From: Dehalococcoidia bacterium
GTDB lineage: Bacteria > Chloroflexota > Dehalococcoidia > Lucifugimonadales > UBA3495
Direction: 5' to 3'
Length of the DNA stretch: 64,000 nucleotides
Assembly (NCBI GenBank): GCA_965232835.1
Contig: OZ247426.1
Coordinates: 229,671 to 293,670, forward strand
Below are positions 25,051 to 27,821 of this stretch, one piece after another. The notes beneath the pieces are model-generated. The model had not been told where the DNA came from. It did not search any database and saw only the letters and a list, made by a program, of their open reading frames with translations. Position 1 is the stretch's first letter; each line of letters starts with the position of its first letter. The position numbers were made by a program, and so were the translations under genes.

Positions 25051-25113
25051 CAGGATTATCAAGATTCCGGGATTTTCAGAATGTTCTCCAATCCTGTCGA
25101 TCCTTGAATCCTG
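25051..25113. repeat. Imperfect hairpin with 9-bp-periodic arms (CAGGATT-type units)
   Basis: Left arm caggatt-at-caagatt-cc-gggatt (25051-25074); right arm aatcctg-tc-gatcct-tg-aatcctg (25090-25113). Confidence 0.5.
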
Positions 25114-25253
25114 CAGACCGTGAATCGGACAGAATTGGCGGGACCTGACTCTGAAGTCGTTCAGCGGATGTGTTCCACGCAGTCGCACCAAGTGTATACG
25201 CGTGTTAGACTTGCGTTTTCCTTGGGCGGTAATTTTCGTGTCTGGTCTATTGA

Positions 25254-25973
25254 ATGATCAAGGTAATCACGTTCGACTTTTATAATACCCTCGTCAAATT
25301 CTGGCCGCCCCTGGAGGAAATCCAAACGGCCGCCTGTTTCGCCAAAGGGCTGAACGCGTCCCGCGAGGATATCAGGCGCGGTTACGCCAAGGCCGACATC
25401 CTTTTTAATCGAGCCAACGAGGAGGAGCCGCTCTCCCTCAGATCGCCGGAGCGGCGCCTTGAATTCTTCTCGGAGTACGAGCAACTCATCCTGGAAACTG
25501 CCGGAATTCCGGTAACGAGGCCCCTGGCACGCGAGATATGGGAATTGGCCATCGCCGTGCCCAAGCAGTTCACTCCATTTGAAGACACGCTCCCCGCGTT
25601 GACCTCCCTTCAGGAACTATCCTACCGGCTGGGAATCATCACCAACCTGCGCGCCGACCTGGCCCCGCTGGTCAGACAGGCCGGTCTCGAACAGTGCATG
25701 GATTTTTGCGTGAATTCCACGCTGGTCGGTTCAGAAAAGCCGCACCCACCCATATTTGAGGAGGCCCTTCGGCGGGCAGGAGTTGACCCGGGCGAAGTGC
25801 TCCATATTGGTGACCAGGTGCGGTCCGACGTGGGCGGAGCACGCGCCATGGGGATGCACGCCGCTCTGCTGGACCGCGGAGGCTGGCACGAGCCGGTGGA
25901 CGGGTGTCCAAAAATATCGACCCTAGATGAAATAGCCGGTCTCCTGGAATCGGAAGACCGCTACTTCGCCTGA
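25254..25973 (+). CDS. HAD-superfamily hydrolase
   Basis: FDFYNTL, ITN, EKPHP, HIGDQVRSDV. Confidence 0.88.
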   Translation: MIKVITFDFYNTLVKFWPPLEEIQTAACFAKGLNASREDIRRGYAKADILFNRANEEEPLSLRSPERRLEFFSEYEQLILETAGIPVTRPLAREIWELAIAVPKQFTPFEDTLPALTSLQELSYRLGIITNLRADLAPLVRQAGLEQCMDFCVNSTLVGSEKPHPPIFEEALRRAGVDPGEVLHIGDQVRSDVGGARAMGMHAALLDRGGWHEPVDGCPKISTLDEIAGLLESEDRYFA

Positions 25974-26020
25974 TCTGACGGCAGGACAAGAAGACTCAAA
26001 CTACCTACAGGAGGGCCACA

Positions 26021-26659
26021 ATGGCACAAGAGTCTCACAATGGGGATCACGATCACTCGGGAGTGCGGGTGGCCGTCTGGTACGACTACATTTGACCCTG
26101 GTGCTATATCGGCCTGGAGCGGGTCGACAAGCTGGCCAAGGAGTTTGACTTCGAGGTGGAGGGCCGCGCCTATCTCCTGCGTCCTGACACGCCCAGGGAG
26201 GGCTCTGAACGGCCGCAGCGGGCGGGCGAGTCCGAGGACGAACTCTCGGAGCCACTGCGCGGGCAGGCTCGGGAGTCCGGCCTCATCATGAAGCCGCCGC
26301 CCTATACACCCAATACGCTCTACTCGCTGGAAGCCACGGAATATGCCCAGCAGCAGGGCAAGTTCATGGAGTTTCACCACTCCGCCTACAAGGCCTTCTG
26401 GGAAGACCGGAGGGACATCGGCCAGATCGAGACGCTGATCGAGATCGGTAAAGAGGTTGGGCTGGACGGCGACGATATGGCCCGCAGCCTGGAGCAGGGC
26501 GAGCACTCGCAGACGGTTATCGCCCAGTATCGGGAGGCCCTGCAGTATGGGATCAACGGGATCCCCACCTTCCTGGTGGGCAACCTGCTGTTCACCGGGG
26601 CGCATCCCTATCCCATCTTCAAACAGGCAATGGAACGCTACCTGCAAAGCCAGGAGTAG
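26021..26659 (+). CDS. DsbA/FrnE-family thiol-disulfide oxidoreductase, probable selenoprotein (U-P-W-C)
   Basis: ATG 26021 after GGAGG; frame reads VWYDYI-TGA(26093-26095)-PWCYIG and continues in frame into the tracked ORF at 26156; GIPTF cis-Pro motif. Confidence 0.85.
26111..26137 (+). promoter_or_regulatory. Candidate bacterial SECIS hairpin
   Basis: GGCC-tgg-AGC-gggtcgacaa-GCT-GGCC; the loop starts with G, 25 nt after the UGA. Folded by eye only. Confidence 0.4.
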
Positions 26660-26795
26660 CCGTTCGTTGAAAATTGGAGGCGATCGAAGCAGGCCGCTTT
26701 CGATTGCACCCCAACCCGGCTTAACAATAGCGCCCGGCGTAATTCACCGGGCGCTTTCGTGCTTCAATGACGAAGATCGGGACGACTGGTGGGGA

Positions 26796-27767
26796 TCAGG
26801 CAGTCGCGGGTGCGCCAGTGAGGGGCACCTCTTCTCGATGGGTGGCGCGCACCAGCAGTACCGGTCCCCCGGACTGGCGCACGACCCGTTCCGCGACGCT
26901 GCCCAGGATCATTCGCCCCACTCCCGAGCGGCCGTGTGTCGTCATTGCCACAAGGCTGTTGGGATATGAGGTCGCCAGGTCGACGATGCAATCTGCCGGT
27001 GCGCCCTGGAGCAGGCGTGCCTCGACGCTGGCGACGCCCTGCTGCTGCAACCGCCTCCTGACGTTCGAAATGTAGTCGCTGGCCTCTCCTTCCACCCTGT
27101 CGGAGAAGGACTTGAAGGACGGCAGAGACGGCGGCAGGACCCTCAGGCCCATGGACATGGCCTGGTAATACTCTGCCTCCGAAATGGTGACCTGCACCAA
27201 CTCCACGGGAATGTCCATCCGGGAAGCCAGGTTGGCCACATGAGGGAGTACATCCTCGGCCTCGGCGGAGCCATCAACAGGTACGATAAGGCGTTCCGGG
27301 GTCCTTTCGCCCTGCACTCCTTGCCGATTCTGCGAACGTACCAGCAGGAGCGGATTTTCAGCGGTGTGCAGCACCTTGTCGGCCACACTGCCCATCCACC
27401 AACGGGCGAACCCGGAACGGCCATGGCTGGACATGGCGATCAGCGTATCGGGGTCCGTGGCCGCTTCATCAACTATGGAACGCGCCGGTTCGCCGCGAGG
27501 CACCATTGTTGTTGCGGCGACCCCGGCGTCACGCATCTGCGCCGCGACCGACGACAGGTAGTTCTCAGCGTGTCCGGCGCGATGGGATTCCAGTTCGTGG
27601 GAGTGCAACTCCGGGTTGAGCGCCTGACCGATGGTGGGATGGTCCGGTTCAATGGCCATCAGCAGAGTCATGGGCAGGGAAAGCCGGGAAGCAATCGCCC
27701 TGGAGTAAGGAAGGACCTGTTCGGAAATGTCCGAACCGTCAAGAGGCGTCAGTATTCTTGTGTACAT
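26796..27767 (-). CDS. Tandem universal stress protein
   Basis: Two USP domains: RILTPLDGS ... SSHGRSG..GSVADKV; LIVPVDGS ... TTHGRSG..GSVAERV. Confidence 0.92.
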   Translation of the reverse strand: MYTRILTPLDGSDISEQVLPYSRAIASRLSLPMTLLMAIEPDHPTIGQALNPELHSHELESHRAGHAENYLSSVAAQMRDAGVAATTMVPRGEPARSIVDEAATDPDTLIAMSSHGRSGFARWWMGSVADKVLHTAENPLLLVRSQNRQGVQGERTPERLIVPVDGSAEAEDVLPHVANLASRMDIPVELVQVTISEAEYYQAMSMGLRVLPPSLPSFKSFSDRVEGEASDYISNVRRRLQQQGVASVEARLLQGAPADCIVDLATSYPNSLVAMTTHGRSGVGRMILGSVAERVVRQSGGPVLLVRATHREEVPLTGAPATA

Positions 27768-27821
27768 TGCTGGATGTCTCACCTCTCAGAAGCTTGCGCC
27801 CCTGCCGTGTCTGAGGGGCGA

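Follow-up and report, generated by a model that had tools for sequence, protein, structure and literature searches.

A predicted FrnE/DsbA-like selenoprotein gene in a Dehalococcoidia bacterium related to SAR202

The gene described here lies at positions 26021-26659 of a 64,000-nucleotide stretch of DNA from a Dehalococcoidia bacterium (the window: positions 229,671 to 293,670, forward strand, of contig OZ247426.1 in GenBank assembly GCA_965232835.1). It is a genuine selenoprotein gene, of an ordinary kind: its product belongs with the FrnE/DsbA-like oxidoreductases, and an in-frame TGA occupies the place of the first cysteine codon in the redox motif, which becomes U-P-W-C when TGA is read as selenocysteine (Sec, U). 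The host genome is a single contig of 4.74 Mb with 61% GC, a metagenome-assembled genome (MAG) of a Dehalococcoidia bacterium related to SAR202 (completeness 93%, contamination 3.6%). The gene stands between a hydrolase gene of the HAD family and a convergent gene for a tandem universal stress protein (USP); the features of the locus are collected in Table 1.

The reading frame and the encoded protein

Read directly from the sequence, the frame opens behind a GGAGG with the residues M-A-Q-E-S-H-N-G-D-H-D-H-S-G-V-R-V-A-V-W-Y-D-Y-I, meets the TGA as codon 25 (in the context W-Y-D-Y-I-TGA-P-W-C-Y-I-G), and goes on with P-W-C-Y-I-G-L-E-R-V-D to a TAG that is the next stop after the TGA; with TGA read as U, the product has 212 amino acids. 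An earlier annotation made from the letters alone (the original prediction) had described this ATG, a GGAGG ribosome-binding site, the reading YDYI-TGA-PWCYIG and a frame open to 26659, and all of these match the sequence. By contrast with the 212-residue reading, the list of open reading frames (ORFs) under translation table 11 holds only a 167-residue ORF with a GTG start at this locus.

Table 1. Features at the selenoprotein locus, in window coordinates
Feature	Position	Strand	Basis or remark
HAD-family hydrolase	25254..25973	+	Pfam PF00702, 9.2e-24
Shine-Dalgarno-like GGAGG	26010..26014	+	6 nt upstream of the start codon
FrnE/DsbA-like selenoprotein coding sequence, 212 aa, U25, stop TAG 26657-26659	26021..26659	+	frame, Pfam, PDB match, AlphaFold2 model, orthologues
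In-frame TGA, predicted Sec codon U25 of U-P-W-C	26093..26095	+	aligns with first Cys of CPWC; conserved
TGC, Cys28, resolving residue of U-x-x-C	26102..26104	+	translation; invariant among aligned orthologues
Predicted selenocysteine insertion sequence (SECIS) hairpin; arms 26109-26116 and 26120-26127, loop GAG 26117-26119	26109..26127	+	comparative tests
Shortened 167-aa ORF, GTG start	26156..26659	+	ORF list; database homologues
CCC, Pro182 in invariant G-I-P motif	26564..26566	+	invariant among aligned orthologues
Tandem universal stress protein, convergent downstream	26796..27782	-	Pfam PF00582, 1.5e-45, two stretches

With the TGA residue entered as C in the HMMER query, the protein matches PF01323 (DSBA) at 1.6e-30 (106.8 bits against a cut-off of 25.6), the match running over residues 17-204 and profile positions 2-190 of 191. 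No NCBIfam model reached its own cut-off on the 212-residue protein, and membership in NF041057 (Rcas_1661 thioredoxin-like (seleno)lipoprotein) was rejected at 48.5 bits against a cut-off of 190. The closest solved relatives are FrnE of Deinococcus radiodurans (5cnw, 2.9e-16) and Streptomyces SCO1869; in the alignment with 5cnw, at about 24% identity, U25 falls on the first Cys of C-P-W-C, just where the original prediction had put the TGA. An AlphaFold2 model built from 17 full-length orthologues (mean predicted local distance difference test score 80.6) sets U25 between a strand at residues 16-21 and a helix at 26-42, which in the model is the canonical active site of a thioredoxin fold, at the N-terminus of helix alpha1. 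The best fold match is again FrnE (template modelling score, TM, 0.80), and the top five Foldseek hits are all FrnE entries (TM 0.79-0.81).

Apart from the U25 position, C28 is the sole cysteine of the protein. In the orthologue alignment V15, V17, W20-Y23, U25-Y29 and G31-R34 are invariant, and residues 15-45 are among the most conserved of the whole protein; Pro182 of the G-I-P motif is presumably the cis-proline whose loop lies opposite the active site in the thioredoxin fold. At the N-terminus the sequence MAQESHNGDHDHSG is hydrophilic, and because no hydrophobic segment is visible by eye ahead of strand beta1, the protein is probably cytoplasmic. The marks of a periplasmic DsbA of the E. 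coli type (a signal peptide and a CPHC motif) are absent, no signal peptide being found by eye and the motif being UPWC.

Conservation of the UGA codon and of a hairpin behind it

Of 58 related genomes searched in six frames, 44 have a homologue. Each orthologue has exactly one TGA, both in the genus (34 genomes, without exception) and in 10 further families of its order, at identities down to 35%. Every genome of the genus also has one copy of a paralogous U-P-F-C family (about 41% identical), each copy again with one TGA. The DNA of the loci from the six-frame search was read together with 48 further loci from GTDB species representatives, whose records are titled as MAGs of Dehalococcoidia, SAR202 cluster or Chloroflexota. 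All 95 loci of the order have TGA at the first position of U-x-x-C, and none has TGC or TGT. At the scale of the phylum, 401 Chloroflexota genomes were sampled evenly; 77 have a homologue at E <= 1e-20, and 66 of these carry the TGA. Twenty of these distant loci were read, a motif search located the active site in 16 of them, and the first position of the motif is TGA in 14 and Cys in two. The TGA at this site is thus more than a chance event: it recurs at one alignment column in every one of the order's 95 loci and in 14 distant ones.

The same column is occupied by cysteine in more remote proteins, which bears out the interchange of Cys and TGA that the original prediction proposed looking for: C-P-W-C is found not only in FrnE 5cnw but also in the homologues P0122 (43% identity) and P0140 (54%), Cys occurs in P0130 and P0132 as well, and about 70 of the 150 nearest representatives at 50% identity are full-length proteins with CPWC, CPFC or CPYC. 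Within one genome a lone in-frame stop looks like a nonsense mutation, and the genome is a MAG, with the completeness and contamination given above, so that a pseudogene, or a CPWC gene misread in sequencing or assembly, has to be weighed. We give that explanation next to no credence and reject it on the conservation of the TGA across relatives: the codon recurs in independent loci throughout the order and in most homologue-bearing Chloroflexota genomes, the protein is under purifying selection both before and after it, and no close relative has TGC or TGT, whereas close homologues with those codons, in a genome lacking Sec machinery, were what the original prediction had named as refuting the selenoprotein reading.

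Residues 15-24 are conserved and their codons vary (four codons for V15, five for R16, four for A18), and for this reason the ten codons ahead of the TGA are read here as translated sequence. In a further alternative the 167-residue ORF, which is the gene callers' output everywhere, would be the true product, and the 24 codons upstream would form a separate leader peptide ending at the UGA. Such a product would be without strand beta1, the U-x-x-C redox motif and most of helix alpha1, although residues 15-45 are among the protein's most conserved, and no conserved ribosome-binding feature was seen in the region of the GTG start, where no formal test was made; we regard it as extremely unlikely.

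For the codon directly before the UGA (26090-26092), all 34 orthologues of the genus and 79 of the 95 loci overall use ATT, where ATC would be expected for Ile at 61% GC, and the four codons ahead of it likewise have reduced synonymous variation; this preference, together with the low variation, may be a context effect on UGA decoding.

Downstream of the UGA lies a hairpin, U-C-G-G-C-C-U-G / G-A-G / C-G-G-G-U-C-G-A (minimum free energy -10.3 kcal/mol), whose stem begins 13 nt past the UGA and whose loop opens with a G (26117) that is base 25 counted from the T of the TGA, in agreement with the G-initiated loop 25 nt on that the original prediction had pointed out. Synonymous codon entropy, counted at conserved degenerate codons in the 34 orthologues of the genus, is 0.13 bits over codons 30-36 and 1.1-1.24 bits downstream; the stretch ATC-GGC-CTG-GAG-CGG-GTC-GAC is the seven-codon window with the lowest entropy in the gene, and none of 20000 shuffles was as low. 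Compensatory changes occur at pairs 21-31, 22-30 and 23-29. A switch of the Val codon from GTC to CTC or ATC is matched by a silent change of the last base in the Gly codon GGC, to G or T, and the pair is restored. Distant Chloroflexota have, at the same register, UCGGCAAG/CUUGUCGA and GGCCGAGG/CCUUGGCC. In a phylum-wide alignment of 23 sequences, 90.1% of cells are paired, against at most 52% when the partners are slid, and 13 cells have changed on both sides of the stem; at 0.237, the covariation score exceeds every slid control and all 500 shuffles, which gave 0.068 +/- 0.021. The hairpin is accordingly a predicted bacterial SECIS on comparative, not thermodynamic, support from two independent tests, and it is conserved and covarying in the place just downstream of the UGA where a SECIS had been anticipated. 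RNAalifold, applied from -30 to +66 around the UGA, gave no structure extending past this short hairpin.

Several single loci deserve mention. The host's own U-P-F-C paralogue (L056, C1:2228687-2229217, minus strand, outside the window) has the hairpin GGGCCU/GGGC/AGGCUC after its TGA. A locus with a broken frame (L111, 1001-1623) was left out of the protein alignment, its 623 nt being not a multiple of three and containing two stops even with TGA decoded as U. Both the TGA and the hairpin are preserved at this locus, and the irregularity suggests a frameshift or an assembly error in that MAG's copy. A distant homologue of the same order (L055, G045:C5:866128-866697) has S-P-F-A in place of U/C-x-x-C and an extra N-terminal domain, and is a redox-inactive DsbA-like protein, possibly of the 2-hydroxychromene-2-carboxylate (HCCA) isomerase type. 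In one single-contig relative (G100), identical copies of the homologue stand at both ends (C1:974-1555 and C1:4397946-4398527), which looks like the untrimmed overlap of a circular assembly and not like a duplication.

Selenocysteine decoding, annotation and gene neighbourhood

The genome carries the four genes of the Sec machinery for which the original prediction had proposed a search: selA (TIGR00474, 540 bits), selB (TIGR00475, 317.5 bits, or 342 when joined with its C-terminal part) and selD (TIGR00476, 379.7 bits), all above the NCBIfam cut-offs, and a tRNA-Sec (anticodon UCA), which ARAGORN detects and Rfam model RF01852 confirms with a score of 69.8 bits, the cut-off being 47. The selD gene (L001, C1:444331-445251, minus strand, outside the window) itself has one in-frame TGA, in the reading HCAG-U-AAK, followed about 20 nt on by a hairpin comparable to that of the FrnE-like gene, with a 7-bp stem and a loop CGUGC in which G is second. 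Within the window, a rough scan for further TGA-interrupted redox motifs was too noisy to rely on, and only the codon at 26093 stood out. The observation from which this analysis set out is confirmed, and the selenoprotein interpretation attached to it is supported.

TGA is also an ordinary stop in this genome: of 1708 open frames with 400 codons or more, 699 (41%) end in TGA, as does the neighbouring HAD hydrolase gene 47 nt ahead of the selenoprotein start codon, and on these two grounds a genome-wide reassignment of TGA (codes 4 or 25) was rejected. A narrower alternative is that this UGA is read through without Sec, by a near-cognate tRNA (Trp, Cys, Arg) or other recoding, the hairpin merely slowing termination. 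The identity of the inserted residue is beyond the reach of sequence analysis alone, and some public predictions do render the codon as W: four of the 150 nearest representatives, P0127 (WPWC) among them, have W-P-x-C (WPWC or WPYC) at the Sec position. For these entries, however, the best explanation is that genes were called under code 4 or 25, the contigs having evidently been translated with TGA=Trp; a complete dedicated Sec system has been kept, TGA remains a normal stop for so many long frames, and the codon falls where a thioredoxin fold has its catalytic Cys, a position at which Trp or Arg would leave the enzyme inactive. We therefore consider read-through without Sec very unlikely.

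Our preferred reading, in which we have high confidence, is that the locus encodes one 212-residue cytoplasmic thiol-disulfide oxidoreductase of the FrnE branch of the DsbA family, with UGA codon 25 decoded as Sec and U25-P-W-C28 as the redox centre. On arriving at the UGA, the ribosome would meet an intragenic hairpin that recruits SelB-GTP with Sec-tRNA(Sec), the latter made by SelA with selenophosphate from SelD; Sec would be inserted and translation would go on to the TAG. The U25 selenolate would then act as the attacking nucleophile, and it would cycle with C28 through an intramolecular selenenylsulfide, so that disulfides of cytoplasmic substrates are reduced, formed or shuffled. The frame, the fold family, the conserved UGA on the catalytic Cys column, the conserved and covarying hairpin and the four machinery genes are shown by the data; the cellular location, the redox direction and the substrates, like Sec insertion, are inferences.

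Some points weigh against this reading. Sec insertion at the UGA is itself something we infer from sequence. In folding energy, the 68-nt stretch behind the UGA does not stand out from its shuffles (z = -0.03), which is why energy was dropped as evidence and comparative tests were used. A permissive Rfam scan of 25900-26800 gave no SECIS family, only three chance-level matches to small or long noncoding RNAs near the 3' end. The apical loop is tiny (3 nt), and in one orthologue (L047) it is UCU, with no G. Finally, the conservation of the hairpin's nucleotides is confounded with that of the peptide I-G-L-E-R-V-D, which accounts for part of it.

The shortening of the gene by standard gene calling, which had also been foreseen, is pervasive. 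Among 5.8 billion clustered proteins, the best 120 matches are all N-terminally shortened (123-184 aa, covering 58-84% of the protein); homologues of 158-184 aa start at the position of the GTG at 26156, and about 38 of the 150 nearest representatives are N-terminal truncations. The W-bearing predictions are a second kind of mis-annotation beside truncation. P0125 and similar long multi-domain matches were set aside as tandem ordinary CxxC DsbA repeats, unrelated to this protein. The complete 212-residue enzyme, with its catalytic centre, is missing from public protein sets, and the value of the gene is mainly for annotation: given the truncated and W-bearing database entries, accounts of redox metabolism in SAR202 and other Dehalococcoidia fall short, and the selenium dependence of these abundant marine and sponge-associated bacteria is under-counted. 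Synonymous suppression and compensatory changes narrow the SECIS to 19 nt, which makes the locus a possible training case for finders of Chloroflexota selenoproteins.

As to the neighbourhood, all 30 loci of the genus have the HAD hydrolase gene immediately upstream in the same orientation, and 28 of the 30 have the convergent USP gene downstream; this arrangement suggests that the HAD hydrolase and selenoprotein genes are co-transcribed, probably as an operon, but offers no clear hint of function. Across the genus the selenoprotein is 76-98% identical, against 59-98% for its HAD neighbour. Between the convergent selenoprotein and USP genes, at 26729-26755, there is a perfect 8-bp GC-rich inverted repeat (GCGCCCGG ... 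CCGGGCGC), probably a terminator shared by both genes. A promoter and terminator scan of 25100-26900 gave nothing above shuffle expectation, and the repeat went unflagged by the consensus scan because its T-run is short.

A wider hypothesis may be put forward only tentatively, and we hold it to be rather improbable: that in Chloroflexota the Sec form of the FrnE-like enzyme is ancestral and near-obligatory, that the minimal hairpin (7-8 bp, with a constant spacing of 13 nt from the UGA) is a lineage-wide SECIS type, and that the HAD/Sec-FrnE pair marks a new selenium-dependent cytoplasmic redox pathway. It leans on the 66 of 77 genomes with the Sec form, on the lack of any Cys reversion in the 95 loci, and on the two Sec paralogues in the genus.

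Comparison with known systems

FrnE of D. radiodurans (DR_0659; PDB entries 5cnw, 5co3, 5coh and 5xwh) is the top match in the PDB by both sequence and fold, and shares with the window protein an x-P-W-C motif after a W-x-D strand. FrnE is a cytoplasmic disulfide oxidoreductase/isomerase of the DsbA family that is not known to carry a signal peptide, and none is seen by eye in the window protein. The two differ at the first motif position, which is Cys in FrnE and Sec here, and in length, FrnE having 260 residues against 212, with the alignment stopping near FrnE residue 200. FrnE also has a C-terminal tail with a second Cys pair (as a PDB entry for a C239S mutant supports), whereas the window protein has no tail and a single Cys. 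It thus resembles FrnE in fold and motif, and is not filed as a strict FrnE orthologue because the C-terminal tail is missing. The likeness to NF041057 (Rcas_1661) is more distant: that is a Chloroflexota-associated thioredoxin-fold family with Sec members, and similarity to it is weak and confined to the C-terminal half (7.9e-13); only residues 97-206 match, and the window protein has no lipoprotein signal.

The predicted SECIS may be compared with the E. coli fdhF type. Like it, the hairpin lies inside the coding sequence a few nucleotides past the UGA and is a stem-loop with G in the apical loop, in a host whose genome has a SelB with the C-terminal extension. Unlike it, the hairpin predicted here is shorter (7-8 bp, with a loop of 3-5 nt) and has no bulged U in this orthologue group, although the hairpin of the U-P-F-C paralogue family can be drawn with one.

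The closest counterparts among known selenoproteins are the DsbA-like ones, which the original prediction rightly gave as already described. In the Sargasso Sea metagenome, nine "DsbA-like" UxxC sequences (COG2761/PF01323) were reported, with a stem-loop after each TGA (Zhang, Fomenko and Gladyshev 2005, PMC1088965); COG2761 is the FrnE COG. A 2006 survey found DsbA-like selenoproteins in four genomes, named Anaeromyxobacter, Desulfovibrio and Desulfotomaculum among selenoprotein-rich organisms, and counted three Chloroflexi selenoproteins, DsbA-like not being named among them (PMC1794560). Reviews of 2022 and 2026 list "DsbA-like protein (form 1), PF01323, UxxC" (PMC9312934, PMC13188914), and in BSepDB (2026) MAGs of Dehalococcoidia, at 46-49 selenoproteins per genome, rank with the bacteria richest in selenoproteins (PMC13326102).

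By every testable criterion the window gene is a member of the DsbA-like form 1 family: it has the same PF01323 domain, a UxxC motif with Sec for the first Cys, and a small-loop hairpin containing G after the UGA, and the nearest named relatives of its product are marine (SAR202 cluster). The published family, with AACY01178397 and NIP15863.1 as representatives, is matched here in domain, motif and hairpin. The novelty is low because DsbA-like selenoproteins have already been described, and the picture of Sec decoding and of the DsbA family is unchanged by this gene. It adds one more member, mis-annotated in public databases, to a known selenoprotein family, and the clade it comes from had already been recognised as rich in selenoproteins. 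What sets it apart from that family as described, and makes it modestly notable, is that the Sec form is here dominant across Chloroflexota, with no reversion to Cys in the order and two Sec paralogues per genome in the genus, and that the comparative evidence for its minimal SECIS hairpin is unusually clean.

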